A stretch of 64,000 nt of DNA from Vermamoeba vermiformis. Lineage: Eukaryota. The stretch is taken from contig JBEWZL010000076.1 in assembly GCA_045837725.1 (NCBI GenBank), positions 1-64,000 on the forward strand, in the 5' to 3' direction. Positions 1 through 62,885 of the stretch are shown in pieces. Each line of letters opens with the position of its first letter. Within the stretch, counting starts at the first letter, position 1. The translations under genes were made by a program, and so were the position numbers. The notes beneath the pieces were generated by a model that did no database searches, was not told the DNA's origin, and saw nothing but the letters and a program-made list of their open reading frames with translations.

Positions 1-9
1 TTGCGTTGT

Positions 10-2300
10 ACTTACCTTTTGCGATAGACGAATTATATTAACTCCAGACGGATCGAGTCTCAATCCGCGCCTATTCGTGCAATCAGCTCCGTGAGCAAAT
101 CTGAGTTATAGAATTGTTAATAATTCATATATATAACGCGTTATACTTACCTTTGGAGCACTCGATGCGCTTCATTAAAAGTTGAATCGCTGCTGGATCG
201 CGGATTCGTAGCCCTCAAAGGTTTCTTCAAGGGTCAATTAGACCGTATCTGTAATTATAACGCGTTAGTAATACTGTATTAATATCGATCTATAGTATTG
301 ATATGGCGAACTTACCCTTCTATATAAATTTTTTATCGCATGAAGATCGCGATCTAGATCCGTTCTGGGTTTTTCTTAAGACTTAAATAATCAATATTAA
401 AACATCACATATTTATTGAATAACTATAGAAAAGCACTTACATGTCAAGAGAACTTGTCCTGTCACGGATCGAGTGTTCGAATCCACGTATCCGGTCTGC
501 GTCCGCTCCTTTTGAGTAATAACCTGTAAATTTATGATTACTAAAATATATTAACGATAAAATAACCAGTTATTTAACTTTGGTTCAAGCGCTGTGTTGC
601 AACGACGCTGAATATCGTTGGGCGCGTGTATAATATACACAGTGAACTAAATACTATTAATAATTCGACCCTTGTGGTCGATCTGATGCGAATCTAAGTT
701 CGCATCACTTCAAATCAAAATAACTCGCGCTGAACGCCGTTGTGGCCGTGGCGCGTAACTATAGCTGTTAATAAGCGATGAACAATAAATATAACGACCC
801 TTGTGGTCGATCTGTCAAAGTTTTTACTAAAAATAACGGCTCCAGATCTTTGTGATTCCCACCCGTAATTAAATTAATTAGCATTTATTATTATGTACAC
901 AATTTTATCTTTTCGCTCGTGGATGCGTTCTAAATGCAATAACAGTCAGATCTGCAACTTGTCCACTAAGTCGGTCTCGTGCTATCAAACTATAATAAAA
1001 AAGATATCAATATTATATATGATAGAGTTGTACGCTTTGAACTTACTTTCGGCGCAATTGATGCGCAGCGTTAGCAGATCGAGTGCCACGAGCGAGCCGA
1101 TCTCATCCTTTTAAATCCTAAATAAGAATAATTATTAATATTGGCGTTTATTTTAAATTTTTAAGCATTGTACTTACTTTCGACACAATCGATGCGTCAC
1201 TGAAGTTTCTGAGAGATCGGGATGTCGCGACCTGATCTCTGGCCCCCGCTCTGTGTAATCTCTTTGATGTAAAATTAGTATAAATAAGTTAATATATAAA
1301 CATATAAGAGATATCACTTACCTTTAAGGCAATCGATGCCCTACATTGATATTTTAGCGGATCGAGACGCGTTGGATCCCGATCTCGTAAATGTTCAACA
1401 GAAGTCTCCTTCGCCATTTCTATGGAGATAATGCGTTAGTGATGGATGGTCTCTATATGTATATGTACTTACCGGTGCATCACAAGCAATGTAATGGATC
1501 TAATAACATTCGAGAGGATCGCGTTCGAGATCCGTCCCGTGTAACTTTTAACGCCTAAATAAATAGCTTTAGAATATTAAATAGCAATAATATAATAAAT
1601 TTAAACTACTTACGCTTGAAGAATTAGCGGGGACTGAGCGATCGACTTCGCGAACGATCCGCACATCACGTCTGCGCAGACGACACTGAAATAACCTATA
1701 AACTAACGATTATTATATTGTATTGATAATATGATAAGCAATGATTTAAACTTTGCACGAGCACGAAGCTCGATCTAATTTGAAAAAATTTAACTTGATT
1801 TTTAAATGATTAATCGACGCATTGGAATGATTATTTTATCACTATTGAATATATTTAAATACTTACTGAATTATTTCGAGGCTCTGGGCGGATTCAATCT
1901 CGCCATCAAGGTACCGACCCCATCGGCGAGCAATAGTCATCGTTCCTGCACCGGGGCACGAACGAAAGGCACCAGTGTATAATAAAACGACATTGGTGGT
2001 CAGGATCTCGCGCATCGAAAGTAACTGGAACTTTCGATCGCGTTAAAAATTTGTGATCTCTATCTAAATTAAAAATTACGCGTTAGCATATTATATGTAG
2101 TATATTTTTATCGATATTCATTAAAAATCCGGATAAAATCCGAGCACTTGGCTCGATCCGGATCAGTAGAAAATTTAAAAATTGATTTTACGACAAAATA
2201 ATATTGTCCATGGTGGAAGTATATATATAAAAATCTTACCTTGAATTATCTCGGTCTCTGCACCGAGATTCGCACAAGTCTTGATCTCGCGCATTGTCTC
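10..2300 (-). ncRNA. Putative multi-exon non-coding transcript built of repeated ~70-100-nt hairpin exons (continues off the left edge; may begin as far right as ~4100)
   Basis: Minus-strand GTAAG(T) donors at + positions 15, 150, 315, 441, 1046, 1177, 1321, 1472, 1613, 1866 and 2239. Most pair with branch-like TAAC/TAAT plus YAG acceptors, e.g. intron 150->101 GTAAGT...TATTAAC...TCAG and intron 315->249. Exons share GATC...GATC stems and (+)CAATCGATGC-like motifs. The exon joins I tested hit stops. Confidence 0.55.
601..815. repeat. Bipartite hairpin repeat block 1 (ACGACGCTG or ACTCGCGCTGAAC hairpin + A-rich spacer + CGACC-CTTGT-GGTCG-ATCTG), 2 units
   Basis: CGACCCTTGTGGTCGATCTG at ~666 and ~795; perfect hairpin TGATGCGAA-TCTAAG-TTCGCATCA at 684-707. 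Confidence 0.9.
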
Positions 2301-2307
2301 GCGCTGT

Positions 2308-2690
2308 AACGACGCTGATTGTCGTTTGGTGCGTGTGCACTAACAATAAATTAACAATCTAAGTAACCAGATCGACCCTTGTGGCCGATCTGTTGCGAAT
2401 CTTGGATTGATACTGTCAATCCTCGAAATAACTCGCGCTGAACGGCCGTCGTGGCCGTGGCGCGCAACTATATGCTGTTAATAAGCGATGAACAATAAAT
2501 ATAACGACCTTTGTGGTCGTTCTGTTGAATTACTGATGCGAAATAGCCCGTGCGCCATTTTCGCATCAGCTCCGAACCTCGAAAGAACTCGCGCTGAACG
2601 GCTCTGATGCCGTGGCGCGTTACTGTCATCTGTAAATGTGCAATATAATACTAAATATTAAATAAACCGACCCTTGTGGTCGATCTGTAT
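2308..2690. repeat. Bipartite hairpin repeat block 2, 3 units
   Basis: CGACC(C/T)TTGTGG(T/C)CG at ~2373, ~2505 and ~2668; ACTCGCGCTGAACGG...GTGGCGCG at ~2431 and ~2587. Confidence 0.9.
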
Positions 2691-2759
2691 CAGTTGTTAA
2701 AAATAAAGTCCAAAAACTGATGCGTGCGATTTTGACTTTCCCTAAATAAGACATTTTAC

Positions 2760-3734
2760 GCTAAAACTCCAGCGGAGCCTAAATTTTGGCCAATATAGCT
2801 CAAATCCATCATAATATGTACAATATAATTTATAATACACCATAATATCATAACAATAAGATATTAGTGGTATTTTATGAGGTGTTGATCTGCAGCAGTA
2901 GATCTGGTTTTATTATTACATTACAAGGGTTTACTATGAAGTCACCATCACGGTGAACACTTTCTCCATCACGGAGATCATACTGCCATCGCGGCAGGAT
3001 AACACCATCACAGTGTAGTCAAAGCCATCACGGCTGTAGGTGCACCGGGTGGTGGTGTCTTTTGCCATCACAGCAATGTTATCACCATCACGGTGAGGTT
3101 GTGGCCATCACGGCAATATATATGTTGAATGAGTTTGATGCCATCACGGCAAGTTAATCGCCATCACAACGAAGTTAACGCCATCACGGCAAATTGATCA
3201 GATATAGATCCGCTGCTATCATCAAAATAATGATTCTACAAGTTTTGTAATAACCTAATATCACTGTGTGCACGTGCTTACATCATCATCAATCGCTGAA
3301 ATTTCGGCAGACACGGATCGTGCACGATCTATTTGAAATAATTATTTTCACTTCTAAATATATTAATTTCAAGTAAATATATCATATATATATTTATATT
3401 AAATTATTTAATGTTTCAGGCGATTTTTCAAACAAGTCTAAGTCAAATCTAAATCCAGCCAAATATTCAGCTTTGTTATATTACCGAATTTACCTCTCTA
3501 ATTACTTGTACTAATATATATGTATATAAATCGATGTTTTTGCTGGGCTGATGATGATACTATGGTGTTCTTGTGCAGATCTTGTGCAATCTGACAGATT
3601 CGCCAAAAACATATCTTCTAGTCGCCGGAAAGTTGTATAAACAGTACCATATTATGGTACTATACTCTAATATAATATATACTACTATAATTCTATATTA
3701 TTGTGCCTAAAGTAGGCTCCGCTGGAGTTTTAGC
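2760..3734. mobile_element. 975-bp segment bounded by perfect 22-bp inverted repeats (MITE-like or long-range stem)
   Basis: GCTAAAACTCCAGCGGAGCCTA at 2760-2781 is the exact reverse complement of TAGGCTCCGCTGGAGTTTTAGC at 3713-3734. No ORF inside and no clear target-site duplication. Confidence 0.5.
2942..3190. repeat. Array of 11 short stem-loops with conserved ATCAC (minus strand GTGAT) pentaloop, ~20-bp period
   Basis: tcacc-ATCAC-ggtga, tctcc-ATCAC-ggaga, ctgcc-ATCGC-ggcag, acacc-ATCAC-agtgt, agcc-ATCAC-ggct, ttgcc-ATCAC-agcaa, tcacc-ATCAC-ggtga, gcc-ATCAC-ggc, tgcc-ATCAC-ggca, cgcc-ATCAC-aacg, gcc-ATCAC-ggc. Confidence 0.92.
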
Positions 3735-3747
3735 ATAATTGATCTTA

Positions 3748-4010
3748 AATAACTCGCGCTGAAACGACGTTGGCGTCGTGGCACGTCACTAACAGGTGCT
3801 AATAATCAATACTGAAGAATAATTCGACCCTTGTGGTCGATCTGATGGCTTACTGAATCTGTATACGAAATAACCCGGCCATTTTTGCATCAGCTCAGAG
3901 CTGAAATAACTCGCGCTGAAACGGCTGTGATGCCGCCGCGTGTTTCTGTCAGCGTAAATGAGCAATACAGTACCAAAAAAATAAATAAACCGACTTGCGG
4001 TCGATCTGTT
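3748..4010. repeat. Bipartite hairpin repeat block 3, 2 units
   Basis: AATAACTCGCGCTGAAACG at ~3748 and ~3905; CGACCCTTGTGGTCGATCTG at ~3825; variant CGACTTGCGGTCGATCTG at ~3991. Confidence 0.9.
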
Positions 4011-4299
4011 TATTTGAAATCGATAACCCTTGCTTGCTGCTGTCAGCCAAACTAATAAATAATTGAGTTGTTATGCAATAAACAAATAAAGAGCATTAAC
4101 ATTATAAATAATTGACGGTTGTGCTCGATCTGTCCGCGAGAGAAAACTACAAGTAACGGTCACTGCCTGATTTGGTAAAATCGACATTCGTCGACCGCAC
4201 GTGAGCATCGACACTCGTCGACTGGTACACGTGTCTGCCAAAAATTGCCGTTCTGTGTTGGGAAATAACCTGGCACAGCCACAGAAAAAGTGCGTGCAC

Positions 4300-6220
4300 G
4301 CACAAAACTCACAAACACAACACCGTAACAATACAACCACAACCACGAGCTGGCCAGTAAGAATAATTTGCTAGTTTATTTATTGCTGGCTTCGTCACGA
4401 CGTGCTTGGTATTGCGCGACCCTGCACTAGTGCTACTAATTATGCTCTGCCCTGCAAGTGCAATAATCATTCGTGGTAAGTAGGCTTGATAGTATTTAAT
4501 TTATAAAATAGATTATTTTACAGTTATCTATTTATTAATTTTCTTTTCAGGTAAAGCCGATCAACAACGCACCTGTTGTTTTACGCGAAGAAATTGCCAC
4601 CTTCGCTGAGAATGTTACTGGTAAAATCTAGAATGTAAGTAATGGGCTGTTTATCAACCTGCATTTTTAATTACATTAAAACTAATTTCAATCTCAGATA
4701 CGGCAGATTTTGACGAGACAACGGGTCTGTCTCCTGGCATCGGATTGCTGCGTCTTTGAGCAGTACAGAAGTAATGGGGGATGCGAACACCGGTAAAATA
4801 AGTGGTAAGTGATATTTAATACTAGTTTATTTTTAAAAATCAAATGCGCGGCATCTCACCTTTTTTGTTCTCGCAGCTCTCCTGGCTCGAACGCGTGTGC
4901 ACTATTTTTCAACAACGTTTCACAGCAAAGGCAGCCTTGCCAATGTTTGAGTAAGTACTCTCTGAATTTAAATCGAGTTAACTAATCCGATCTTCAGTTC
5001 TTCCAACAGCTGCGTGGCACACCGTCCAGTTATTGGACGGTCCCTTCAGTGCATGGCTCGCACGGTCCAAGCCTTGCTTGGCTCAAACCGTCCAAATTCT
5101 GGACGCTTTTTTTAGCGTGGCTCGCACCGTTCCCTCTGCTCTCAGTGTGCCACCGTCCAGTTATTGGACGGTGCCCTCCGCGCCGTGCCTCAGCTCGACA
5201 CCGTCCGGTTATTGGACAGTGCCCTCTGCGCCGTGCCTCAGCTCGACACCGTCCTGTTATTGGACGGTCCCAGTGCATGGCTTAAACCGTCCAAGACTTG
5301 GACGCTTTATCGGACGATCCCTTCAGTGCGTGGCTCGCACCGTCCAAATTCTGGACGCTTTCTCAGCGTGGCTCGCACTGTCCCCTCTGCCCTCAGTGTG
5401 CCACCGTCCAGTTGTTGGACGGTTCCCTCTGAACCATGCCTTAGCTCGACACCGTCCAGTTATTGGACGGTCCCCTCTGTGCCGCACTCTCACGTGACTC
5501 CGTCCAGTTATTGGACGGTCCCTTCAGTGCATGGCTCGCACGGTCCAAGTCTTGCTTGGCTCAAACCGTCCAAAGTCTGGATGCTTTTTTTAGCGTGGCT
5601 CGCATGCCTCACTGCCACCGTCCAGTTATTGGACGGTTCCCTCTGCAGCTGCCTTTTGTGTGACATTCCCTCCGTGCTGTCCCTTCAGCGTGCCACCGTC
5701 CAGTTATTGGACGGTTCCCTCGGTGCGTGGCTCAAACCGTCCAAATCTTGGACGCTTTTTCAGCAAATGGCTGACCGTCCAAGTCTTGGACGCTTCATTG
5801 GTGCGTTGTTGACACCGACCAGTTATTGGACGCTTAATTGGACAATCTCTTCAGTGCGTGGCTCGCACCATCCAGTTATTGGACGGCCACTTCAGTGCAT
5901 GGCTTGCACCATCCAGTTATTGGACGGTTCCCTCTGTGGCTGCCTTCTGTGTGACATCCCCTCCGTGCCGTCCCTTCAGCGTGCCACCATCCAGTTATTG
6001 GACGGTTCCCTCGGTGCTGTGCCTCAGCTCAGTGTGGCTCACACCGTCCAGAACCTGGACGCTTGGCTGGTGCTGCATGGCTTGGTGAGTAGATTGCACC
6101 ATCCAAGACTTGGATGCTTTGTTGGTGGCTTGCACTGTCCAGGACCTGTGCACCTTCTTGGCTGGAGCTCACACTTTGTATGCCAAGGTCCTGGACAGTC
6201 AATTGTAAAATAAAGTTTAG
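4300..6220 (+). ncRNA. Putative spliced, polyadenylated non-coding transcript whose last exon is the palindrome array
   Basis: Canonical introns 4476-4550, 4635-4697, 4805-4876 and 4951-4997 (GTAAGT...branch-like site...CAG), possibly also 4357-4458. AATAAA at 6209-6214 directly after the array. The spliced frames I tested contain stops. Confidence 0.5.
5021..6200. repeat. Array of ~23 palindromic units (ACCGTCCA-GTTAT-TGGACGGT and CCGTCCAA-N4-TGGACGC) with repetitive spacers
   Basis: About 13 GTTAT-loop copies (5021, ~5152, ~5200, ~5247, ~5403, ~5451, ~5500, ~5617, ~5695, ~5814, ~5867, ~5908, ~5985) interleaved with about 10 AA(ATT/GAC/GTC/ATC)-type copies. Confidence 0.95.
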
Positions 6221-6253
6221 TTTTTACAAACAGCTCCTTTATTGGGTTTGCAA

Positions 6254-6438
6254 GGGGGTGTACAGCATGCTGTACAGGGGTGCGATGGGTGTACAGCATG
6301 CCGTACGGGGGTGCGAGGGGGCGTACAGCGTGCCGTACGGGGGTGCGAAGGGGTGTTCAGCGTGCCGTACAGGGGCATCAAGGGGTGTACAGCATGCTGT
6401 ACGGGGGTGCGAGTGGGTGTACAGTGTGCTGTACGGGG
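6254..6438. repeat. G-rich ~31-bp tandem repeat x6 containing palindrome GTACAGCATGCTGTAC
   Basis: Unit GGGGTGTACAGCATGCTGTAC(A/G)GGGGTGCGA; runs of G3-G5 give G-quadruplex potential. Confidence 0.95.
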
Positions 6439-6584
6439 AAAAAATCCTAGCCCCAGCCCCAAATCCTATAAAATATGACATTAAAAAAACAGCTATAGAA
6501 ACTTTGTAGCTACTTTTTACAATATTTTATTTTTAACCCTCTCACCCCCAAACCCTAAAGCTATATTAATCATCGCATTCAATC

Positions 6585-7500
6585 TGATTCTCATCATGGA
6601 CACGACACCAACATTTACGCGTGCAAAAAGATCATGCATTTGAAGCTGATTCTCATTTAAACCATGACGCCAAGATTAGCACGTGCAACTGGAAGCATAA
6701 AGAATGCAGTTGTAGCTCTTCTCTCTATAACAACGACGCCAATTCAACGCGCGTGCAATTAGAACGCACTTTTGATATCAATTACACTATACCCACGACG
6801 CTTGTTTTAAGCACGCGCACTGAGGATGAAACATGCTCAATCATTATGTTTCAGTGTATTTAAAGCACCCGTGTACCAATGAACAGGCATTGATTACCTC
6901 AACACTCTATTTCATTATAAGCACGACGCTAGCATTAATACACACGTAAATCATACATTTCTATTATAACCACGACGCTAACATTTAGCGTACACGTGAA
7001 ACAGGGATACTCATCATGTTTCAACAGATTTAAAGCATTCGTGTACCATTGAACTGACACTGACACCATCAACTCTGATTCTCATTATTACCACGACGCC
7101 CATGTTTACGCGCGCGAATAACACTTGATTCTCTTATTAACCACGACGCTCGCTTTCGATAAGCGTCCGTGAAGCAGACATTATGCTTCTATTCATTTAA
7201 AGCACGCGTTACCAGTGAACTTGCATTGATATCTCAACAATGAAATCTCATCTTTGATTCTCATTATAACCATGACGCTCACATAGAGCGTACGCGTAGA
7301 AACAGGACATTCTTCATGTTTCGACGTGTTTAAAGCACATGTGCGAGTAACTAGCATGGATTACGATACCAATGATGAAGCAGGACACCCTTCATGCTTC
7401 TATTCAATTAAAGGATCCATGTACCAGTTAACCATCATTGATTCCATCTTCAAAATGAAATTTCATTTTCATTTCTCCTCTTTTCTTCTTTCATTCTATT
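6585..7500. repeat. Degenerate repeat family (TTCTCATTATAACCACGACGCT...ACGCGTG) with a higher-order unit (CATGTTTCA...TTTAAAGCA...GTACCA)
   Basis: ACGACGC/ATGACGC-like core at ~6601, 6663, 6732, 6794, 6922, 6971, 7092, 7142 and 7271, mostly after TATAAC-like sequence; TTTAAAGCA at ~6859, 7029, 7196 and 7329. Confidence 0.8.
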
Positions 7501-7504
7501 ATGC

Positions 7505-7735
7505 AACGACGCTGATTGTCGCAGGGCGCGTGTTTACTATCAATAATAACAATAACAATAATAATAACTCGACCCTTGTGGTCGATCTGATGCAAATCTA
7601 AGTTCACATCTAATTTTCAATTCCACAGCCAAAATAGCTCGTGCTGAACATCTTCTGTTGCGTGACGAGTTACTTGCATATTGTAACTAGAATAAATAAA
7701 TAAGAAAAAATAATTCCTCACTTTGTGGTTGAGTT
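7505..7735. repeat. Bipartite hairpin repeat block 4, 2 units (second degenerate)
   Basis: AACGACGCTGATTGTCG at 7505; CGACCCTTGTGGTCGATCTGATGCAAATCTAAGTTCACATC at 7570, nearly identical to 666-706; CTCACTTTGTGGTTGAG at ~7717. Confidence 0.85.
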
Positions 7736-8300
7736 TATTACATCATTTCTTTGCAAAAACAGATTTACTCCGATCTCCGCGAGAGACCGTTCGTTCTGTT
7801 TGATAAACCCTGTGCACGAGTGTTAACTGTCAAAATTAATTACACCACAAGGCGACTCGTGGTCAAAATCCCGCAAATCAACAGCAAAAAAAAGGTTATT
7901 CGTTAATGTCCTGCGGTGACTTTCAAAAATTTCAAATCAGATTTGGGCGGGAGGGTAAATTATCAGCAACGCGAGCAGCTACAGCAATGCCGTCTCGTGC
8001 GCTGCGACTAACATAATTACAGAGAAATTGTGGTAGCTACCTTTGCGCAAGATAAACGATTTAATTTTGATTTGGATCAGCTGAAGTAAAATAATTGGTG
8101 ACCATTGCCAGTGCAAACACGAGCACTGTTACATATGAAACTGTCTTTCGTGCTTGTTTGGTGCGTTTTGATGACAAAAATAACGCATGATTGTAACTAC
8201 GAGTCTCGCTCGTGTCGTCACTAGTTACGAGTTATGGCTCCAATAGATCACGCCTGCCCACTAAATTGTAAGTTATTTTGATTGTTTTTTGTTGTAAGTT

Positions 8301-8770
8301 CATGACCAGTGCGGTCACGAAGTTTTTCAAGTTTGAATTTTTTTACATCGTCTCCCTGTGGAGACGACCTCAAGGGACTTTAATTTTTCTTAGTTCGTGA
8401 CCAGTGCGGTCACGAAGTGGGACTTAGTTTTTTTGTTACATCGGCCTTGCAGGACTTTAATTTTTTTTAACATCGTCTCCCTGTGGAGACGACCTCTGTA
8501 GGACTTAGTTTTTTTAGACATCGTCTCCTCGTGGAGACGACCTCTATCGGACTTAGTTTTTTCAGACATCATCTCCCCGTGGAGACGACCTCCAATGACG
8601 TGACATCAATTTTCTTAGCTCGTGACCACTGTGGTCACGAAGTTTTAAACTTTGGTTTTTTTACATCGTCTCCCTGTGGAGACAACCTTGAAAGACTTAA
8701 ATTTACATCATTTCCTGCTAGAGACAACTGTAAAGGACTTTAATTTCAGTTGTGACCATTGTGGTCATAG
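8301..8770. repeat. Mixed hairpin array: CGTCTCC-CTGT-GGAGACG (x5) and GTGACC-A(G/C/T)TG(C/T)-GGTCAC (x4) separated by T-tracts
   Basis: CGTCTCC-type at 8349, 8474, 8522, ~8570 and 8667; GTGACC-type at ~8302, 8397, 8622 and 8752. Confidence 0.9.
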
Positions 8771-8894
8771 TTTTGCCCTTACCAGTACAGTTGTTGTTTT
8801 ATTCTAACTTGTTATATTGTAAAATGAATAAACTCTTTCAACATTTAATCTCTCTGGTGTGTAATTACTCTTGTCAGCCCTCAACTCTAATTAA

Positions 8895-9185
8895 CTCTTG
8901 GCGACTCTAGTTAGTGCTCGGCTAGTCTTGTTAGTGCTCGGTGACTCTCATTAGTGCTTGGCGACTCTCGCTAGTGCTCGGCAACTCTCGTTAGCGCTCG
9001 GCGACTCCCATTAGCGCTTGGCGACTCCCATTAGTGTGCAGCGACTCTCGTTAGCACTTGGTGACTTGTTAGCGCTCAGCAACTCTCGCTACTCAGCGAC
9101 TCCTGTTAGCTCGCGGTGACTCTCGTTAGCACTCGGCGACTCTCGTTAGTGCTCAGCAACTCTCGTTAGCACTCTACAACTCTTG
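8895..9185. repeat. 20-bp tandem minisatellite, consensus GGCGACTCTCGTTAG(C/T)GCTC, ~14 copies
   Basis: Directly visible 20-nt periodicity. Confidence 0.95.
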
Positions 9186-10033
9186 CTCACACTTGTGCAA
9201 TTGCTCAATGTTGAACTCTTGGTTGAAAAACTGCCAGAAAAGTTGACTTTACGAAACTTTTTGGATAATTTTTAGGGCTAGCCCTGTTTGGCCAAGCCCT
9301 GTAGTATATATGAATATATTAAACCAAATCTTTTGTCAGGATTAGAAATCCTCCCAAAAAATCTCAAGGGAGGATTTTACTGGTAGGCATTTTTCTCAGT
9401 TCAGTAGTATCAAGTATTAAAATTATTTATATACTAATGACCAGCAATGTTTATTCTATAATATCAATAGTTTTGACACTAATTGGCAAGTGTTTTAATT
9501 TTTATCCAACTGCCAAATATGGCAATGCAGGATCAAAGAATAAAAACCTTTAAAGTTAGGAATTCTTTAATTTATTGTATTCTGTTGAGAGTAGGCCTCA
9601 CTACCATTTGTATCATATTGTTATTCATTTCCTGAGATCCTAAACACAAAAATTTTCACCTTATTTAGTTACCTATGCATCAGATATCTATAAACAGACT
9701 GCTTTATGCATTGGCAATGTGATTGATTATTGGCTTTTGTTGGAGTACATTCTTAGAACTTTCTCATCCCAAATCTGCACCCAAACCTCTCAAAAAGTTG
9801 GTAACATATCAATACTTATCCTTTTGCTGAACATTTAGGAGAGTCTTAAACCTTTTTGTACCAAATCCAAAGCCTTAATCACTGGTTAAAACTCTAATGT
9901 ATCAAACAGATAGCTTTCAATGAAAGCAAGGTGATTATTAAACTCTGCTGGAAGTGGAAATCTTGCAGGCCAATGCAACACTGACAGACAACCAATCAAG
10001 GATCTGATGTAACAAGCAAATACAGACTTTTAT

Positions 10034-11928
10034 CTAAACAGTCTCCTCAAGTTTGTTCAAAAGTGGTTGATCACTGCTGTTGTGCTCACTGTCATCTTGA
10101 ACGTGCTGTCTTGCAGTTGGCTCAGGTAATGTTCCTACTGTCACTCGTTGCATGTGTGTTGTGCATGCTACTCTCTGCACGGAACCAACCCTGTCAAAGT
10201 GTCATTAGCTTGTCAATAGGTTATGCAACAAGCTTATTACTTACAATTCAAAGAGTGTATATCCGAACACGAGGGCCATGACCATTATGAGAAACTGTAG
10301 CGTGGTTTCCCTAGGGAGGCTGTCAGTTAGTACGAACAGAAGCTGTTACAAGGGCACATACATTCGGTGAGTGAATCCCAATAACATAACGATGGTGCCA
10401 ATAGCAATTCTTAAGGGTAGTCGAACTTTCGTTGGTATGACAAAATTGTTGTAATTTTGCGACAAGAAGCCCATGAGACCCATGCTGATCATCACCACAC
10501 CCACACCACCGGAAATCATCCACTGCGCAATGTACGGATGTTCATCATGCTTTTCATTGATCGTGTGCTACGCGAAAATTAGTAACTAGAATTACAGCAC
10601 GACAACGATACTTGCCTCAAGGAGCAACAGTCCAGACGACGCAAAACAGATGCCCAACATTAGTGGCAAGTGACAAAACATCCACAAAATGTAGCCGTAG
10701 CGACTCCTGCGGATAGCGTGCAATGCCTTTGGTGCACCTTCGATGTCAAAGTAAGTCCACTTCAATGCGAAGGCGATGAACAACGGGATGAAAGCACCAC
10801 TAAGAGATTGAACTCAGTCAGTCTAACACACTACACAATTGTTATGATACGCACAGATATCCCGAAAGATCGTGATTCTCCGAGGCGGCTAACAGCGCTA
10901 CAACCATCATGCCCAACAGTAACATAATGAACACCCCCACGCGTTCAATGTAGTGTTCGATGTTGAGCGGTGCTGCATATGGCACGTTGACCGAAAGGAA
11001 AATGATCAACTCTTCTGCGATCAGACTGACAGCCCAACACACGTAGCCGTACTCGGGGAATATCAGTGAACAGCACCAAGGCACGATGAGCAGAGTGTTC
11101 AGTAATGCCATGTACTGACCGACAATGTTAACTGGACTGATCTGCTTCATTATTCATACGTACCAAAGCATTTTGCCATCGCTTGCCCTCGCAATAGGCA
11201 GTGTACATATACATTATTATGAGCAACAATTTCGCTGCGAGATACGACAAAGTGAATCCGACAGAAGGTGATTCTTGTGCGTCGTGTAAATTGATTCCCA
11301 TTCCCACCCAAACATTAGAATTAACATTATGCAATAGAGTAAAACCTTCACTTCGTGCTACTTACAACGGCTGTCATTTGTAACAGATAGTAAATTTTGT
11401 GGATCTATTTCGGGAGTTAGAATCGCGACGGTTCTGTGTTGAAACTTACTATATCATCGGTGTCGTATCGAGTGCTGTACATTGTAGTTGCAGCCCAAAC
11501 ACGCCACACAGCGCCGAAAAGTAGAATGAAAATGTGGATGTGGTCCGAATTCTCGCTCAGAAAATGAACTTAGAATGAAAATTAATTCTTTGGACGTAAA
11601 TATGTGATGGCTAATAGCTAAGTTACCTACCCAAATGTTCGATAAGCACAACGTAAATCAGATCGTAAAATAATTCTGTCCAGGATATTTTTCGCGTGTC
11701 TCTTTCTCGTATTAACACCCTCTTGTTAATTTCTGAATCAAATACGAAATATTGCCGCAGTCGAGGAAACTCTAAGCAAAATGAAATTAGTAAAATTAAA
11801 ATCAACTTTTGCCGGCGGTTGAACATCAATTTAATTATATCGGCCATAAAATAATTCATACCGAGGTTATATTAATTTTACTAAATACTTACTAACGAAT
11901 CCATAGAAACATGACCGTGAACTGTCAT
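10034..11928 (-). CDS. Low-temperature-requirement protein A (LtrA)-family membrane protein, multi-exon (5' end approximate)
   Basis: Exon peptides RKISWTELFYDLIYV, HYIERVGVFIMLLLG and WMFCHLPLMLGI match LtrA motifs; multiple TM segments; stop TAG at 10034-10036 after splicing. Confidence 0.75.
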
Positions 11929-12153
11929 CAACGCTGTATTTAATTAAATGGTGCGCTCCAAAATGATGCTCCGTTATGTGAGCCTATTAATATTATCTAG
12001 GTGTCATTAAGCAACTTGGAAAAATAATAGAGGGTTAAAGTCGCTTTCAGACCGTATGCGAATTGACAATCGGGCAGCACAATTTCTACTTACATCTGGA
12101 TTATGATGACTCATGCTATTAACAATTGAATCATATTATTTTATAACCGATTT

Positions 12154-13336
12154 TTATTGTTTCGAAGGTTTGCGGCCGAAATGGAACGCCATCGGGGTGA
12201 AAATCTTCAATTTGCCGCCGAGATAAAGACCTTCTTGACCTCGCAACAGCATTCTTTGCACGCCTACGGTGCCCTTAGGAGCCAATCCGATTTTTTCGGC
12301 AATCGACAGTCCGACATCCAGAACCTTCTGACCAACTGGAGTCATTTGCCAATTGCTCATGGTGTATTTTGGCGTTAAGGGATCTTCCCAAGGAACCTGG
12401 GACTCTTCAGCGATATCTCGGACTTCCACGTCAAAAAATCCTGCTTCTTTCATTGCCACCGCTACGTCGTTAATGTGCGCAATGTCGGGCAATCCGGATC
12501 CTTCTTCGATAGCCTTCTTAACGTACTTGTGATGCGCATTGCTTGGCTCGTACTAACGTGCATATTAGAGCTGCGAAGAGTGTAAAAAAAAGACCAGTGA
12601 CGAACTTACCTTCTTAGTAAAAGTCCATTCGTACCCACAGAACACACCACCAGGCTTCAGCACTCGAAAAGCTTCAGAATAGACTCCAAGCTTACTAGGT
12701 GCATGAGCTGTAGCCTCGACTTCGTAGACAATATCGAAAGTATTGTCTTCGAACGGCATCTTCATAAAATCACCCTAGAAATTGTAAGCAAGCTGGTAAC
12801 TTTGCGAAGTGCGAATCGCTCTTACTTCGACAACAGTAAGGAGATGAGAAAGCCCTGCTTTTTCGTTGAGCTCCCTGGCTCGCTTGACTTGATAAGCATT
12901 CAAATTTAGGCCTGTTATACTCGCACCTACAAATAGGTTAGCTTGGACCACCATTGCAAACGAACGTAGACTTACCAGTAAATTTGGCGATGTTTCGCAT
13001 CGGACCTCCAATGCCGCATCCAACATCAAGCACTTTCATGCCTTCCTTCATGTGCGCTCGGAGGGCCAAATACAACTCGTGGCGTTTCAATGCATCGCCG
13101 TATGCTTCGCCCCTGAATTGCTTGGCAAAATGAAAGTGCTCGCCCCAAGCCTTCTCGTAGAAGTCAGTCGCAAGATCGTAGTAATTAACGACGACATCTT
13201 GGTAGTTTTTGTTGCGCTCGTCTGTCGTGTGCTTCTGGTCGTCATGAAGATCGCGATATTTGGTCACTGCATCGGCGACATTAGCGTGTTGTTTCTGATT
13301 ACCGTAGCTGCTTGGAACGGAGACTAATTTGGCCAT
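12154..13336 (-). CDS. SMT1: Sterol 24-C-methyltransferase (SAM-dependent), 4 exons
   Basis: [54 protein letters not shown] and the C-terminal KIFTPM motifs. Confidence 0.95.
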
Positions 13337-13762
13337 TTGAGTCTGTTGACAGAATAAGATTAGTGGTGATTGTCCAGCGAAGCTGAAGCGCAATTAAAGC
13401 TGAGTTTCATCGGGGTATTTGTATCGGTTGCGGTGGTGGTCAGAGTCTGACCAAGCTGTTCCGCATAGCTCCCCAGTACTTCGCTCTTGTGCGAGGGAAC
13501 TATGAGGGACTATGCGGATTTTATCTTTGTTACGGGCCTTACGGACTACCAGAACAATTTCATTGGAGTAGCTGAGCCACTTCATCCATTAGTATCCGAG
13601 AGCGGCACCCTCTGTAGCCAAAAAGTAGCTAGAGCCATCGTGTTGATAATGTCGCGACGTCAAATCAAGCGGTTATGTCATCTCTCCGCTACAACGAATA
13701 CTTCCGGAAACAAACAAATGCAAGTCACGTAATAAAGCGCAAAATATTTACAAACCGTAAGG

Positions 13763-16999: not shown

Positions 17000-17511
17000 T
17001 GCTGCTATTCCACAACAATAAGATCACGATCGATGGCCAGTTTGCGTGAGTTGCGTTTGCGTTCGTATACTTTAATTACAGTGACTGTTGTTTTGTATTA
17101 TACCAAGGACCTTCGTGTTTTTAACAGTGAAAACAAAAAATATCGAAAACACGAAAGAGGGACAAATTTCTATCGGTCCGATTTCAGAAACGAAGCGCAA
17201 TACGTTCACAAGTATATATGCAACATAAATATTAACATTTTTGTATTTGTGTATGGTGTCGATACGAACGCGAGTAATTGGCAATTTCAAGGAAGACTCA
17301 GCTGGATTTCACGCGCAGAAAAATGCGGTGCAGAAATTACAATCGCAAAATCCTCTCCGTTCATTTTTATTTCAAAAAAGACAATAATTTGAACTACCAC
17401 GAATCATGATTGAAATGCAATTTAGTTGAAGGTAAAGCTTGGCGAATCTACTTTATTTCGTGCTCAAGTACTCATTAACAATTGTTAATAATACGGATTA
17501 ATTTAGCAACC

Positions 17512-20500
17512 ATGGGCGAATATATAAAAGAAGACGAAGAAAATGATTGGCATCTGCTTGCGCAAGTTGGCGGATGGTATTGGATGGTGTCAGAAAATAT
17601 TTTCAGATGCACGGAACAAGCTGGAAGAATATATGACTTACAAGCGCCTGATTTGAGCATAACTAAATTCGCTGATTATTGCGTTCCGAAAGACAGAGAA
17701 GTGTTCAGTGAATTTGTTGAGCGGATCATTACCTTCAATGCGCGAGCCGGTCCTCTTAACAAGTCGCAAACCGATGACCACACGTCAATATTTATCAACG
17801 ACGATTCTTCATTCGAGTTTGAATACCGAATTCAATTAGGATCGAAAATAAAATGGATTCATTGCCGAGGAATAATCGAAGTAGTTGACGCCGAAACGAA
17901 GAGGAAAGCCACTTTAGTATCAAACAATGTCGTAGTCACACGCGTAAAAGCCTCAATTCAAGACATTTCCAAAGTGAAACCAAATCTGGATGAAGAGATC
18001 AAACGCAAAAATGAAGAATTGCGCCAAAGTGAAGAAGATTTTCAAGTGCTGGTTGAAGCCATGCCTCAAATGGTTTGGTCAACGACTGTAGAAGGTCGTG
18101 CCAACTACTTCAATAGCAGATGGCACGAATACTGCGGAACTACTTTTGATCAGACTCGAGGCTTTGGCTGGATCATGTCTATACATCCCGACGACGTAGA
18201 GAGCACGCTAAAAGTTTGGAACTATTCGGTTAAGACAGGTGCGTAGATGTGTTTTTGACCTTTTTTGGGCAATGGCTCACCAAATTGCAAAGCCGAATTT
18301 ACAAGCCAAAATTCAAACTGAAATTAATTGCAATCATCTCGGCGGTTAGATTGATACTAATTTCAAGGAATAAATTTTCTTAATACCCGTTTTCATGTTA
18401 AATCAATAAAAACGTACACGCCTAAAAATTTCGCTTTGTAGGCGAGGTTTTTGACTTCAAACATCGCCTAAGGAGGGCCAAAGACGGCCAGTATCGATGG
18501 CACTTAGTGCGTGGAATACCTGTGCGTGGGCCTGATGGAAATATTAAGAAATGGCTCGGTACGTCAACTGACATCCACGATCAGGTATGGAGCCCTTGAC
18601 TAGCCCCAATAGCTTAGCAAATTAATTAATTTAAATCACAGCACGAAGCGGAGGAAAAGGCCAGAGCCTCCGAGCTGTATCTCAGTGGAATCATTCAGCA
18701 CTTTCCCGTTTTGGTAATCGTTCTGAATCGCAACGGTGTATTCACCCTTGCCGACGGCCATGGCTTATCCGTACTTGGCTATGATTCGTCATCATTCCTT
18801 GGAAAGTCCGCCGTTGAAGTAATGTCTTCTCTCGGCAAGCCAGAATATATTGAGTAAGTGATCTTGTTGCAATCAATGAAAATGAACTAACCTTTTGGTA
18901 GATATTTTGAAAGAGGTCTGCGAGGAGAACAATTATCGGTGGAAATGGAGTTTAACAATCACATCCTCGATTGCCACTTTGCCCCATTCAATTTTGATCA
19001 GTCACCGGACAACTCAGGCCTAGTAATTGTTGGCAAAGATATCACCATTAGAAAAGAGGCAGCAAGATTGGCAATTAGTGAGGCTAGTGCACGCGAAGCC
19101 GCAAGGTTAAAAAGCGAATTTTTAGCAACAATGAGCCACGAGATTCGCACACCTCTAAACGGGATTATCGGTACGTGGAAGTAGCATATATTTGACCCGT
19201 TATTGGGTTTCATGATTCAGTTTCGCATTACGTTAGATTGCCAAACCAAAAATTACCATATAACGACTCAACTAATTCTCCGAACACAGGCATGTCAGAA
19301 TTGCTGTCCGACACTACGCTATCCGACGAACAGCGCCGTTATTTAGATATCATTCAAACGAGCAGCTCCAATCTCTTGATGTTAGTGAACGACATTTTAG
19401 ATCTGTCGAAAATGGATGCTGGAAAAGTCGAGCTGGAGAAGACCGAATTTACGATACGCCAGTTTGTTAACAGACAGCTAGATATATTTTCAATTAGTCT
19501 CAAGAACAAATCGCTCAAGCTCAATATAGAGATTGATGAAAAAATCGACCACACAATTTTCGAAGGTGACGAGGGTCGTATTGGTCAAATATTAGTCAAC
19601 CTCATCTCCAACGCGATCAAATTCACGCCACCAAATGGAGAGATATCGTTGAGCGTTCTGCAAGCTTTCAAAAGACGTTTGCCTGTGTCGAATGAAAGCA
19701 CGCCAGTCTCGTCACCCAAGGCAGGTGTGAAAACTGGAGGCTCTCAAGAAATGGAGTCTTTGTCCGAAGCCTCACGAGATATGACCGGCCCCATGGACGT
19801 CATGTTCGTCGTCACCGATTCAGGCATTGGAATTCCTTTGGAGGCCCAGCGCAAGCTTTTCCAACCGTTCATTCAGGCAAACAACTCAACAAGGCGCAAG
19901 TACGGCGGTACTGGTCTCGGCTTGTCTATTTGCAAGAAATTGGTGAAGCTTATGCGCGGTGAAATTGGCGTGGAGAGTGAAGACAACAAAGGCGCCACAT
20001 TCTGGTTCACTATTCCGCTGCTTCCAATGTCGCCTTGCAACTCGCCCGCTACTGACACGCGAGACCGTTCTTTCAGTGAAAGCAGCGCAAGGGTAAGTGC
20101 ACCACTCTGGTTTTTTTTACTTACTGACTTGCTGTACTTCAGAGCAAACTGACGTCCTCGTCGCATCAACCACTACTCGATTTGTTTGAAATGCGCAAGA
20201 AGTTCATCAAGTCATTCTCGTTCACTCAGAGATCTCTCGTCAATCGCAAAGTTATTTCAAAGCCACGCATCTTAGTCGTTGAAGATCATCCAGTTAATCA
20301 AGCTCTCATGGTAGCGACCCTGCGTAAGCTAGGTTGTGAAGTGGAAGTCGCCAATGATGGACAAGAAGCTGTAGATGCCTGGACTGCAGACGACAGTACG
20401 TTTGATCTGGTATTCATGGACTGCTACATGCCCGGTCTCGACGGTTACACGGCTACAAGAATCATTCGGGAGAAAGAAATTAACAACAACTACGGTCGAA

Positions 20501-20691
20501 CATCATTTTCAAAGCTCACGGGCTCAGGCTGCGACCACATTCCGATCATTGCCGTGACTGCCAATGCTTTGAGCGGAGATCGCGAGAAGTGCTTTGAGGC
20601 AGGCATGAGCGACTACTTGCCCAAGCCTATTACAAAGAACTCCATCATTAGCATCATGAAGAAGTGGCTGCCCAACGCGACTATTGATTAG
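17512..20691 (+). CDS. Hybrid sensor histidine kinase (PAS/PAC - HisKA - HATPase - receiver)
   Basis: [12 protein letters not shown]...IHPDD; H-box [22 protein letters not shown]-box [15 protein letters not shown]1 DSGIG; G2 GGTGLGLSI; receiver VVEDHPVN...FMDCYMP...YLPKP. Confidence 0.96.
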
Positions 20692-21024
20692 ATTCAATCG
20701 GCTTTCGCAAGCTGATTTTTCATACGAAGCACATCCGCACTGACTGCACAGGATCTGAAAAAAACTCCGCAATTCAAACTGTTCGAGAAGACAGAAAAGT
20801 CGGAGCCGTGCCCTTTTACCCGAACCCTTGTTAATGTCACGTGGAAAACACGAATTTTCGCCGGCAATTTTGCGGCCAACAACTCCGCGGGTGGTCAAAA
20901 TAAACAATTGTTTATTATTATATTATCTTTACTTGCGTCAACAAATATCATCCAAAGATCCGGATGTACGACGCGATAAGTTCAAATCTTTTCTGTTTAT
21001 TTATTTAAAATTTCCATTGCAATA

Positions 21025-39258: not shown

Positions 39259-40185
39259 TTAGTTGCGTTTTATGACGGACATCAGCATCTCGCGCACTGA
39301 ACGACCTTGTGGAGCAGAAGATCCAGATCGTTTGCCCGCTATATTGGCGACCACACCTCTAGTCCATTGTATAAGCTCTGCGTTGAGTCGCTGTGCAGGC
39401 AAGAATATTGCAAGTCTCTTGGGCACAACGGCAAAGTCGGTTGGTAACTCGTTGAATGGTCTTGCTTTGAAACAAAGAATGATGAACAGCGGGAACAGCG
39501 AGGAGTAGATCGCGTAGTTGGTGAAGAACGAGAAGAAGAAGCTCGATGCAGTGAAGGGCAAGCCATAACCCAAGAAGTAAGCCCAGTGCGTCTCCACGAT
39601 CTGACAGCGGTGGATCAAGCCCTTGCCCTCCGTATTCCACTTGAAGTCGAAGCAGTAGAAGGCGTATATCCAGCAGTAGTGGATGAACGAGAGGAGAGTG
39701 CCAACCCAAGGGAAGATAGGCAAGAACATGGCTATTACGACGAATATGCCCGTCAAACTGACCGTCATGATCTGCTCCGCGATGTACTCGAAGATCCATT
39801 CCAACGAGCGTGAGGGTGCTGCTTTGCTTGCAAACTGCGTCGATAGCTCGTTAGATGAGAGCGTGTTCAATAGCAGGCATATCACGAAGCAAGGCAGCTG
39901 CCATAGGAGGTAGAACAAGACGGTAAACAAATCCAGAATCCACGGGAATGTAACGTTGTCTGTCATCTTTGCAATGTGCGGAACCATGACGTGGAAGAAT
40001 AAGACGTTGGGAAGCATGAGTAGGAATACGTTTAGCACGATGTTCATGGCAATAAATTTTTGAAGCGACGGATTTCCTATGATGGTCCGTGCTAGATCGC
40101 CCCATTTGAGGGCATCAATAACGCCAGAAATTAATTGTGACGTTACTAATTTTAAATCCACGACTAGTCCTTGCATCTTTTCCAT
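39259..40185 (-). CDS. EI24: Etoposide-induced protein 2.4 (EI24) family membrane protein, intronless
   Basis: LWQLPCFVI, GTLLSFIHYCWIYAFYCFDFKW, VETHWAYFLGYGLP, YSSLFPLFII, RLAIF. Confidence 0.9.
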   Translation of the reverse strand: MEKMQGLVVDLKLVTSQLISGVIDALKWGDLARTIIGNPSLQKFIAMNIVLNVFLLMLPNVLFFHVMVPHIAKMTDNVTFPWILDLFTVLFYLLWQLPCFVICLLLNTLSSNELSTQFASKAAPSRSLEWIFEYIAEQIMTVSLTGIFVVIAMFLPIFPWVGTLLSFIHYCWIYAFYCFDFKWNTEGKGLIHRCQIVETHWAYFLGYGLPFTASSFFFSFFTNYAIYSSLFPLFIILCFKARPFNELPTDFAVVPKRLAIFLPAQRLNAELIQWTRGVVANIAGKRSGSSAPQGRSVREMLMSVIKRN

Positions 40186-59979: not shown

Positions 59980-62885
59980 TTAGTGTTGGGGAGTGGCACC
60001 CATACCAGCACCGCCGAGCAAACCATTGGCAGTGTTGAACAAGTTGATGGGTGAGTTGCCGTCGGTGATCATGTAGCCTTGCAAGCCCAAAGATTGGAGC
60101 ATCTTGACTTGCATTTCAGGGCCGGCACGGGCGATGGCAGAAATGGTGTTCTTGCCAATAGCACCGATCAAAGACTTGAACTTGGCAGACTCGATGGTAG
60201 AGAGATCCTTGGCCTTGGAAATCTCGAGCTCGTTGATGGCCTTTTGGTGTTCAATCTCGGCTTCTTGTTCCTTAGTGCTGATTTCAAGATCGGCTTCGGA
60301 CTTGATCTTGACAGCTTCGGCGTGCAAGCGAGCTTGGAGCACAGCAGCCTCACCTTCAATTTGTTGGGCTTCAGCGCGAGCCTTGGCTTCAGCGGTGGCT
60401 TGACCAGTGGACTCGACGGCAGCTGATTGAGCTTGCAATTGCAAGAGGTCCTTACGGGCCTTTTCGGCTTCAGCCTCGTCAGTGATCTTTTGACGTTCCA
60501 AACGACCACGAGCCTCTTGTTCACGTCGCTCTGCCTCGTGTCTGGCAGCGGCTTCTTGAGACTTGGTGGTAATCTCAATAGCCAATTGGACGGAGATTTG
60601 CAAGGCGTCACGAGTGCGTTGATCGACAGGCTCGACGGATTGAATATCGATGTTGTCGATGACCAAGTTGTTGGCAGGGAAGTGGAAACGGTTCTTGATC
60701 TTTCCGTTATCATCAGTGCCAAAGACGGCAGCGCGGATGATCTTAGCAGAGTTCTTGTGGAAGTTATCGAAGGACTCTTGGGCGACAGCACCTCTGACGC
60801 GAGAGGCGATAGCCTTGCAAGCATCACCAACAAAGTCGGGGACTTGGAACAACTTGACGGCCTCTTCTTGGTCGGTCTTGTTGGGGACTTCGAAGTGCCA
60901 GTTGTAGCTCAACTTGAGGGACAAACGAGCGTGATCGGCAGTTTCGACGATGACGAAGTCAGTCATGAAGTCAGGACCCAATTGGAGAGCAATGGACTTG
61001 ATGACGTGAGGGCGCTTGGGCTTGTCACCAGACAAGGACAAGATGGTGAAGTGCTCATCAGGACCCAACATAACCAATTCGGGACCATAGACAACACGTG
61101 ATTGCTTGAGCTTGTAGTCGTAGATTTGAACGGCGGTGTTGTGAGGTGCACGGAAGCTAACGACGCGAGTCTTATCGCGGCCAGAGGGGCCAGAAGGCTT
61201 GTCACCTTCACGGACACCAGAGGCACCGCGGATGATCAAGTCCTCAACGACAGAGGTGAGTTCCTTCTCCCAAAGTTCTTCTTCGGGCAACAACATGTAG
61301 CTGCGACCAGTAACCATGCGAACACGACCGGTCTTGATGTCTCTGACGTAGATACCTTCGTTTTCGTCGAGAGGGATTGAGCGTCTCTTCTCAACAACCT
61401 CAACTTCAACTGAAGGAACGTAGTCGCAAGGACCGTAGATCATCCAGCGGTCACCAGGCTTTCTAAGAACGGCTTCCTTTTCAGTGAGGTCCTTGAAGGC
61501 TTCACGAGCGCGGAGCAAGAGAGCCTCTTCGGCGTCCAAGACGTGAATGGTTTGAATGCCAGCTTCCAAACGCTCTCCGGGTTGCAAGAAGAAAGAGATG
61601 GGACCCTTTCGCAAAACTCTTTTACCCATTTGAGGCTTGCCGTCTTGGCCAACAGGATCCAAAACAACGCAGTATTGTCTGTTGGTCAAAGTGGTGATAG
61701 TGACTTCTCCGATGAGCTTCTCGTTAACGTCGGGGATGTGTGTTTCAGTGTGAGCCAAAGTAACCAACCATTCCTCTCCGGCCTTGCGGGTAGCACCGAA
61801 GGCATCGACGAAAGTGCGGAGAGCTTGGAGGTGAAGAGCCTTCTTGTCGGTCAAGACGTAAGCAGAGACGGTTTCAACGACTTCTTCTTCGACTTGAGGA
61901 ATGAAGGCACCAGGAGTCTTAACCAAGTATTCATCACCAGCCTTTCTTGTGACTTTAGCGGTGGGATCGGGGAACTCCTTCTTGGCACGAAGTCTGAGAG
62001 CCTGGTTGGGCTTAATGACGATGGCGCGAACGATTTCGACGACTTGGACTTCAACTCTAGGAGTGTAGGTACCTAAATTTAAAAAAAGACTTAGATATTT
62101 TGTGGGATTTGGATTTTCAAACGGTTTCCAAGAAAAGTTGCAGAATTGAATTAAAGCCATAATATGATAAGAAATAATACTTACCAGGTCCTTGGAACAA
62201 CCATTCATCTCCAGCAACTCTATCGACCTTGCCGTCCTTAAAATCTCGGATGGCTCTCAATTTAAGAGCTGTGTTGGGAGCAACAACTTGCAAGGGAGAA
62301 ACTTTGCCAAACAAGGTTTCACCAGGGAAGAGAGGGAAAGGCTCTTGTTCGAAGCGAATTTCCTCATCTCCGTGGCGAATCTTGACTTGGCCAACTGAAT
62401 CTGTAACTTGACGACCATCCTTATCTCTGTTTAATATATTTGAATTAATTAAGCTGTCCAAGAAGATATTTAATTGACGGTGATGGTCTTTGATTAACTT
62501 ATTTCGAGGAAGTTGAATTCAAGAAATTGATTTAAGGTCGTTGGAAAACGCTTATCAAAAGACCAACGCATTGTAGAAATCAGCACGATTTTACTATGAT
62601 AAAATTTACTAAGCGTAAAACGTTACCTGAGCACGGGGTTTTGAATAATGCAGTAGTGTCTGGGAGGGATGATAATCATAGCTTCAGGACCACCAACAAC
62701 CTTCTCGTGATCAGCACGAGTGAACGTGCGAGGACCAACAACGACTCTATTAAAACGAGTTAGCTATTTTCTGTAATTATCAAAATAAAAACCGTATCTA
62801 GTCTTTACCTAGTAACGTTGGAGTTGTTATCTAAAACGTGAATGTAGTGGAAGGGCTTGATTCTAATAACAGAGTCACCGTCCAT
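59980..62885 (-). CDS. MVP: Major vault protein, 4 exons
   Basis: [83 protein letters not shown]. Confidence 0.99.

Follow-up and report, generated by a model that had tools for sequence, protein, structure and literature searches.

A covarying stem-loop array inside a hairpin-repeat island of Vermamoeba vermiformis

Why would a row of short hairpins stay complementary while the sequences of their stems change? This question is raised by a locus near the start of a Vermamoeba vermiformis contig (NCBI GenBank assembly GCA_045837725.1, contig JBEWZL010000076.1), of which we analyzed positions 1 to 64,000 of the forward strand, referred to below as the window. At 2942-3192, the plus strand carries a tandem array of 11 CC-ATCAC-GG units of the form NNNCC-ATCAC-GGNNN (Table 1). 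An initial annotation of this DNA had described 11 "MS2-tag-like" stem-loops with a conserved loop and compensatory stem changes, had suggested a preference for the minus strand, and had proposed a multivalent platform for a protein that binds RNA or single-stranded DNA. Our analysis indicates that paired changes in the stems, conservation of the core above that of the stem, and a one-sided wobble bias appear best explained by a function of the minus strand in single-stranded form.

As a structural feature, the array is genuine and statistically well supported. A scan of the 64 kilobases (kb) with the pattern CCATC[AG]C[AG][AG] recovered the 11 units and one further loose match (at 41290) on the plus strand, and no match on the minus strand. 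The cores of 9 nucleotides (nt) start at 2945, 2966, 2986, 3005, 3025, 3065, 3085, 3105, 3141, 3161, and 3181, with start-to-start distances of 21, 20, 19, 20, 40, 20, 20, 36, 20, and 20. Distances of 19 to 21 nt together with those of 40 and 36 nt indicate that the units keep to a 20-nt register in which the slots near 3045 and 3125 are empty or degenerate; this bears out the number of stem-loops and the spacing of about 20 nt that had been reported. The linkers between units are 5 nt. The loop is ATCAC in 10 of the 11 units, again as described, and ATCGC in unit 3. Exact copies of CCATCACGG number seven in the 64 kb, every one of them inside the array. When up to one mismatch is allowed, the window contains 18 matches (10 of them in the array) compared with 7.88±2.71 in 100 shuffled sequences, none of which reached 18. 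A covariance model built from the units and run with filters off recovered just these 11 in the 64 kb, all other hits having E values of about 1 or worse. Reading the array in six frames gave stop codons in every frame.

The stems vary in sequence and remain complementary. Over the 5-base-pair (bp) stem, 46 of the 55 cells pair on the plus strand, and three of the five pairs (positions 3, 4, and 5; 10 cells) change on both sides, each showing two to three different Watson-Crick pairs. The stems quoted in the initial annotation, TCACC/GGTGA (units 1 and 7), TCTCC/GGAGA (unit 2), CTGCC/GGCAG (unit 3), and AGCC/GGCT (unit 5), are all present as written. The aligned units covary with a score of 0.487 against 0.161±0.052 in shuffles, a value reached by 0 of 500, although these units are paralogous copies within one array rather than orthologues, so that their relatedness can inflate the shuffle test. 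Sliding the partner column by 1 to 3 positions lowered the score to 0.131 at most. Both-sided pair changes in excess of shuffled and slid controls, the pattern by which a structured RNA is recognized, are therefore found in the array, and the claim that the stems change and stay complementary stands. A sixth and a seventh stem pair are unsupported, with 5/11 and 2/11 cells pairing, respectively.

Conservation is graded along the unit, with an identity of 0.95 in the 9-nt core, 0.59 in the outer stem, and 0.49 in the linker, which is not the pattern of a young neutral tandem array. A block of three units has been duplicated to give units 6 to 8 and units 9 to 11, which are 78% identical. Unit 10 is the counterpart of unit 7 in this duplication; at stem position 3, both arms differ between the two, A-T having become G-C, a compensatory change that can be placed in time. 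The closing CC and GG positions show no covariation among the units.

The imperfect stems point to one strand. Mismatches of the C·A type on the plus strand occur in units 4, 6, 10, and 11 (5 cells in total), and all five of these transition-type mismatches become U·G on the minus strand, which brings the pairing there up to 51 of 55 cells. The initial annotation had recognized the type of mismatch correctly and had counted three such copies instead of four. The minus-strand preference that it drew from them holds within the array (5/5) and extends to the hairpin-repeat island in which the array lies. Among 53 hairpin copies from seven families of this island, including the array, 349 cells comprise 319 Watson-Crick pairs, 18 A·C, 2 G·T, and 10 other combinations on the plus strand. 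Counted as distinct events, A·C exceeds G·T by 12 to 2 (binomial P = 0.013; seven families, window positions 650-8700). When every column of these repeats is counted, transitions are balanced between the two directions (36 for G>A plus T>C and 35 for C>T plus A>G). CpG occurs at 1.21 times its expected frequency in the island and at 1.09 times elsewhere in the window; this lack of depletion weakens the caveat, raised with the original description, that CG-to-CA deamination might have produced two of the mismatches. The A·C excess lends modest but real support to a putative constraint on the minus strand in single-stranded form.

Folding predictions are in line with a minus-strand preference at the level of single units. 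Individual 19-mers adopt the expected hairpin in 11 of 11 cases as minus-strand RNA and in 10 of 11 as plus-strand RNA, the exception being unit 10, which is left unfolded by its two C·A mismatches. Summed unit energies are -52.3 (minus) and -48.5 (plus) kcal/mol against -11.7±4.4 for shuffled units, and the z-score for folding the whole array is -4.5 on the minus strand and -2.1 on the plus strand.

The initial annotation saw the array by itself; the array is in fact one block of a larger island, in which hairpin-repeat families number seven or more. Except for 142 bases in the 57-58 kb bin, every local repeat of the window falls within 1-9300. Perfect hairpins (stem of at least 6 bp and loop of 3 to 8 nt) number 57 in the island compared with 14.4±4.2 in shuffles, and their counts are at expectation in the five other segments of the window. 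The island is also sorted by strand. The word GTAAGT occurs 10 times on the minus strand and never on the plus strand in 1-2400, and six times on the plus strand and never on the minus strand in 4401-8850. Neither strand has the word in 2401-4400, the only such 2-kb stretch of the island, which contains the array. Splice-donor-like motifs thus point outward on both sides of this gap. On the left, the minus-strand units have an intron-like GTAAGT...CTAAC...AG structure, with putative exons of about 60-100 nt and introns of 50-67 nt. Four of nine putative minus-strand exons are closed in all frames, which indicates that these units are not coding.

Our preferred, tentative reading, to which we would give somewhat less than an even chance, is that the array forms a multivalent stem-loop platform on a minus-strand RNA. 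The carrier would most probably be RNA, since a stem of 5 bp would barely suffice for a cruciform in DNA. The transcript would begin within the AT-rich segment, rightward of 3190, and proceed leftward across the array. Given the strand sorting of GTAAGT, it would then enter the minus-oriented exon- and intron-like units from 2240 to 1. Across the array, the RNA would present up to eleven 15-nt stem-loops, each reading NNNCC-GUGAU-GGNNN, with a 5-bp stem closed by two C-G pairs and a fixed pentaloop. A repeated loop on sequence-indifferent stems could offer many sites to one loop-specific RNA-binding protein, and the result may be a high-avidity scaffold, a sponge, or a retention element. The array would in this case be one block of a larger non-coding locus with several different hairpin-repeat blocks.

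Several observations weigh against this platform. The minus strand is predicted to be most stable (-97 kcal/mol) in a fold that retains only two local hairpins and otherwise mostly pairs adjacent units with one another, because G·U pairing makes GCCGUGAUGGC complementary to itself. The multivalent-platform proposal of the initial annotation is upheld in its stem-loops, fixed loop, covarying stems, and minus-strand bias, and is weakened by this inter-unit fold. Several units contain uncompensated mismatches, with four cells (A·G, G·A, A·A, and A·A) that do not wobble on either strand. The strand bias stems from few events (3 versus 0 in the array, and 12 versus 2 overall), and the families to the right of 4400, which lie behind plus-oriented GTAAGT words, also have a minus-type bias (7 versus 2 events), which misfits a simple picture of two divergent transcripts. 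In a contig from a water metagenome, unit 2 differs at 2973 (G>A, which would again be U·G on the minus strand) and at 2971 (A>T), the latter a change of the loop in a wild relative; at a contig depth of 3.6, these differences may be errors. Rfam 15 gave no match in the 64 kb at gathering thresholds and, at E values up to 5 over 1-9400, six weak matches, none of them on 2942-3192.

Transcript evidence points the same way with less force. Three RNA sequencing runs labeled with the same species place no read on 2401-4800, and no RNA run is listed among the public runs as carrying the sequence. These three runs place 1, 3, and 12 reads over 1-12000, where no control gene has reads, so the absence of RNA reads is weak evidence and does not amount to silence. 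The sole cluster of reads (11370-11404) matches a 35-nt exon of an LtrA-like gene (both exons concerned lie within window 11366-11460). Its reads continue into an exon that matches the next exon of the window at 23 of 30 positions, with all seven differences at every third position, a pattern suggesting that these runs derive from a paralogue or from a strain that has diverged.

When metagenome and viral contigs were scanned by pattern, no related array from another organism appeared among the matches listed. Three phased CCATCAC words occur at a minimum of 118 metagenome loci; among the matches listed, none has a related hairpin-type CCATCACGG array, blastn aligns none of them to the opening 10 kb of the window, and most are 21-nt coding-type repeats. 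Viral contigs yielded 69 loci with phased CCATCAC, one for the CGACCCTTGTGGTCGATCTG module, and none for the CCGTCCAGTTATTGGACGG module, none of them related; the single 20-mer match lies in unrelated sequence.

The strongest rival explanation, which we consider rather unlikely but serious, is a homotypic cluster of double-stranded DNA sites, in which a protein would bind the 9-bp core at 11 sites two helical turns apart. The invariant part of the unit is indeed a 9-bp word that extends beyond the 5-nt loop, its CC and GG never covary, and the combination of a 20-bp period with the high core identity corresponds to an invariant word in helical phase, as in iterons or homotypic arrays. The position of the array also suits such a cluster, which would sit in a control region (enhancer, insulator, or origin-like) between divergent sets of units: it lies in the GTAAGT-free 2 kb, with minus-oriented motifs to its left and plus-oriented motifs to its right. 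The lack of RNA reads on the array agrees with this as well, weak as that evidence is. However, binding to a duplex gives no reason for paired changes at stem positions 3 to 5 or for mismatches that wobble-pair on one strand only, and a dimer site would hold its half-sites constant rather than let them covary. No known motif was matched, and possible resemblances to YY1-type GCCAT and Cbf1-type TCACGTG words do not extend to all units.

Less probable still is that the array is a lineage-specific, functionless hairpin minisatellite, whose stems would be kept complementary by replication template switching in quasi-palindromes, with the island as a product of the same process. Perfect stems and multibase compensatory changes can arise by template switching in one event (PMC8794818). 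The many unrelated hairpin families of the island fit a regional mutational process of this kind, as does the decay of single units. The process leaves unexplained why an asymmetric loop with its CC/GG closure is 95% conserved compared with 49% for the linkers, and why the A·C excess is one-sided; the stems, moreover, are merely 5 bp long. It also suits this explanation that the array does not appear to be a maintained high-copy element. In the water-metagenome run, which covers 29 of 30 bins at 95-100% identity, the two array bins have word depths of 2.35 and 2.06, values that fall among those of the genes at 9.6-12 kb, and depth peaks at 16.1 over 6249-6438 versus about 1-7 elsewhere. A metagenome joint from 819 to 3818, which would delete the array, was set aside as unreliable, as its shorter side is 26 letters and lies in a repeat.

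A mobile-element remnant, either a foldback insertion resembling a miniature inverted-repeat transposable element or a Helitron-like rolling-circle element whose single-stranded DNA hairpins would be read on one strand, is very improbable: the 1-kb AT-rich segment that holds the array is enclosed by an inverted repeat (2747-2795/3699-3747) arranged like terminal inverted repeats, and single-stranded DNA hairpins would likewise tolerate G·T on one strand only, but the 64 kb contain no second copy of the segment or the array, no clear target-site duplication is seen by eye at the arm ends, no transposase or Rep/helicase gene lies nearby, metagenome depth is low, and the viral contigs hold nothing related.

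Known systems of comparable design do not accommodate the array, which lacks the defining sequence features of the Xist A-repeat, the Csr/Rsm RNAs, and the MS2 and boxB operators and is therefore a member of none of them. The spacers of the Xist A-repeat are long and U-rich. The linkers of the array are short, its loop has five nucleotides (ATCAC, or GUGAU on the minus strand) in place of AUCG, and it has no sequence homology to the A-repeat; its host is a unicellular eukaryote. The likeness lies in tandem short GC-closed hairpins with a conserved small loop in a non-coding locus of several different repeat blocks, the A-repeat being described as a hairpin with a conserved AUCG tetraloop (PMC8887474) and as a multivalent protein-recruiting platform (PMC10870365). 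In the Csr/Rsm sponge RNAs (CsrB and RsmZ), one RNA-binding protein is sequestered by numerous small hairpins that share a loop motif and differ in their stems (PMC4005645). Their loops carry GGA and bind CsrA/RsmE in bacteria, whereas the ATCAC/GTGAT loops of the array lack GGA and the host is eukaryotic.

The MS2 coat-protein operator combines a 4-nt loop (A-N-Y-A) with a 7-bp stem in which one A is bulged, and lambda boxB has a 5-bp stem with a pentaloop. The array resembles such phage operator tags (MS2, PP7, and lambda boxB) in its short stem-loop and in a tandem repetition that could give multivalency, and the match in size between its unit and the boxB hairpin would, by analogy, make such a unit physically plausible. 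All 11 units differ from the MS2 operator: they are unbulged, their loop has 5 nt, and their stem does not exceed 5 bp. The label "MS2-tag-like" is for reasons of loop and bulge a mere analogy. The spacing and varied stems are also natural rather than of the engineered-cassette type. Dyad-symmetry satellites at centromeres are tandem repeats with dyad symmetries of less than 10 bp and predicted non-B DNA (PMC5889037). Each array unit does have a short dyad symmetry; unlike those high-copy satellites, the array has 11 units at the low word depth given above, with covarying stems around a fixed asymmetric loop.

The remaining blocks of the island show other repeated signals (Table 1). In the hairpin block at 5020-6115, the copy at 6100 contains a compensated change from G-C to A-T. 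On the minus strand of 8897-9180, 12 CTAAY words occur at 20-nt spacing (26.7 per kb versus 2.1 elsewhere); CTAAY is the branch-point word of the introns of this organism, of which 34 short GTAAG...CTAAY...YAG candidates are found along the whole length of the window. A pentaloop of the form G-T-N-R-T is common to several families, with GTTAT, GTTGT, and GTCGT on the plus strand (2442 and 5021-5986) and the GTGAT of the array on the minus strand, and all of these loops are closed by CC/GG or CCA/TGG. The shared form may reflect a common reader on opposite strands, or coincidence. The sequence of 1289-1322 recurs in inverted orientation at 4804-4837, in a stretch that resembles an intron.

Three other identities were considered for parts of the island and rejected. 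A mir-513 match at 8290-8770 scored 26.8 bits against a gathering score of 72.1 and reflects just the inverted symmetry of the modules. The region 5000-6200 has long open frames without a Pfam match; at 5020-6115, all three plus-strand frames are open solely because the repeats are A-poor. The plus-strand ACTTACC words of 1-2300, which resemble the 5' end of U1 small nuclear RNA, gave no U1 match even at E values up to 5, and on the minus strand they fall in full GTAAGT...CTAAC...AG intron-like units. The plus-strand loop of the array, AUCAC, may also bear a likeness to the loop of U1 stem-loop I.

Table 1. Positions and properties of the array units, the surrounding hairpin-repeat island, and genes of the window
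Feature	Coordinates	Strand	Description
Array unit 1	2942-2956	minus	tcacc-ATCAC-ggtga; 5/5 pairs; RNA -6.1 (plus) and -6.0 (minus) kcal/mol
Array unit 2	2963-2977	minus	tctcc-ATCAC-ggaga; 5/5 pairs
Array unit 3	2983-2997	minus	ctgcc-ATCGC-ggcag; 5/5 pairs; sole unit with altered loop
Array unit 4	3002-3016	minus	acacc-ATCAC-agtgt; inner C·A on plus is U·G on minus
Array unit 5	3022-3036	minus	aagcc-ATCAC-ggctg; 4 pairs and outer A·G
Empty register slot	3040-3064		no ATCAC; another small hairpin with G·U pairs on plus, -6.9 kcal/mol
Array unit 6	3062-3076	minus	ttgcc-ATCAC-agcaa; inner C·A on plus is U·G on minus
Array unit 7	3082-3096	minus	tcacc-ATCAC-ggtga; 5/5 pairs; 15-mer identical to unit 1
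Array unit 8	3102-3116	minus	tggcc-ATCAC-ggcaa; G·A at stem position 4
Second register gap	3118-3140		AT-rich; no predicted fold; units 8 and 9 are 36 nt apart
Array unit 9	3138-3152	minus	atgcc-ATCAC-ggcaa; 4 pairs and outer A·A
Array unit 10	3158-3172	minus	tcgcc-ATCAC-aacga; two C·A on plus; minus fold with two U·G, -2.7 kcal/mol
Array unit 11	3178-3192	minus	acgcc-ATCAC-ggcaa; C·A at position 4 and outer A·A
Hairpin-repeat island	1-9300		non-coding, 9.3 kb; the array is one block; may extend beyond the window start
Left inverted-repeat arm	2747-2795		49 nt; 78% complementary to 3699-3747
Right inverted-repeat arm	3699-3747		partner of 2747-2795; arms 903 nt apart
Flanking satellite, left copy	2305-2690		units of about 130-160 nt of hairpin modules (CGACC-CTTGT-GGTCG and others)
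Flanking satellite, right copy	3741-4135		direct orientation; 76% identity to 2426-2688
Island family CGACC-CTTGT-GGTCG			7 copies
Island family ACCGTCCA-GTTAT-TGGACGGT	5020-6115		13 copies; loop GTTAT in 12 and GTTGT in 1
Island family CGTCCA-N5-TGGACG	5020-6115		8 copies with varying loops, interleaved with ACCGTCCA-GTTAT-TGGACGGT
Island family GTACAG-CATG-CTGTAC	6249-6438		six 32-nt GGGG-flanked palindrome units
Island family TCGTCTCC-CTGT-GGAGACGA	8290-8770		5 copies, in 42-48-nt repeats
Island family TCGTGACC-N5-GGTCACGA	8290-8770		3 copies, loops AGTGC/ACTGT, interleaved with TCGTCTCC-CTGT-GGAGACGA
Island family, 20-nt tandem repeat	8897-9180		about 14 units
LtrA-like membrane protein gene and sterol methyltransferase gene	10700-13400	minus (both)	
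PAS/HisKA/HATPase hybrid kinase and EI24-like protein genes	17400-20700 and 39259-40185		
Major vault protein gene	59980-62217	minus	97%-identical relatives in public data

A broader proposal takes in the whole island. The island, of at least 9.3 kb, might be a repeat-built long non-coding RNA locus of Xist-like design, transcribed outward from the array region, whose RNA would scaffold or soak up RNA-binding proteins, splicing factors perhaps among them; we regard this as quite improbable. Under this proposal, each block would present one short signal many times over: 11 CC-GUGAU-GG hairpins, 13 GUURU-looped hairpins, 10 perfect 5' splice-site words, and 12 CUAAY words on a 20-nt register.

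If the array and its sister blocks are transcribed and bound, a protist would possess a naturally occurring multivalent hairpin platform that shares its principle with the Xist A-repeat and the bacterial Csr/Rsm sponges without being related to them, and the units would provide a ready natural series of stem variants with which to map what the binding protein reads. If it is silent DNA, it would be a clean eukaryotic case of short hairpins kept complementary without an RNA function, for example by template switching, and would bear on how strongly a structured RNA may be argued for from covariation among paralogues in tandem.

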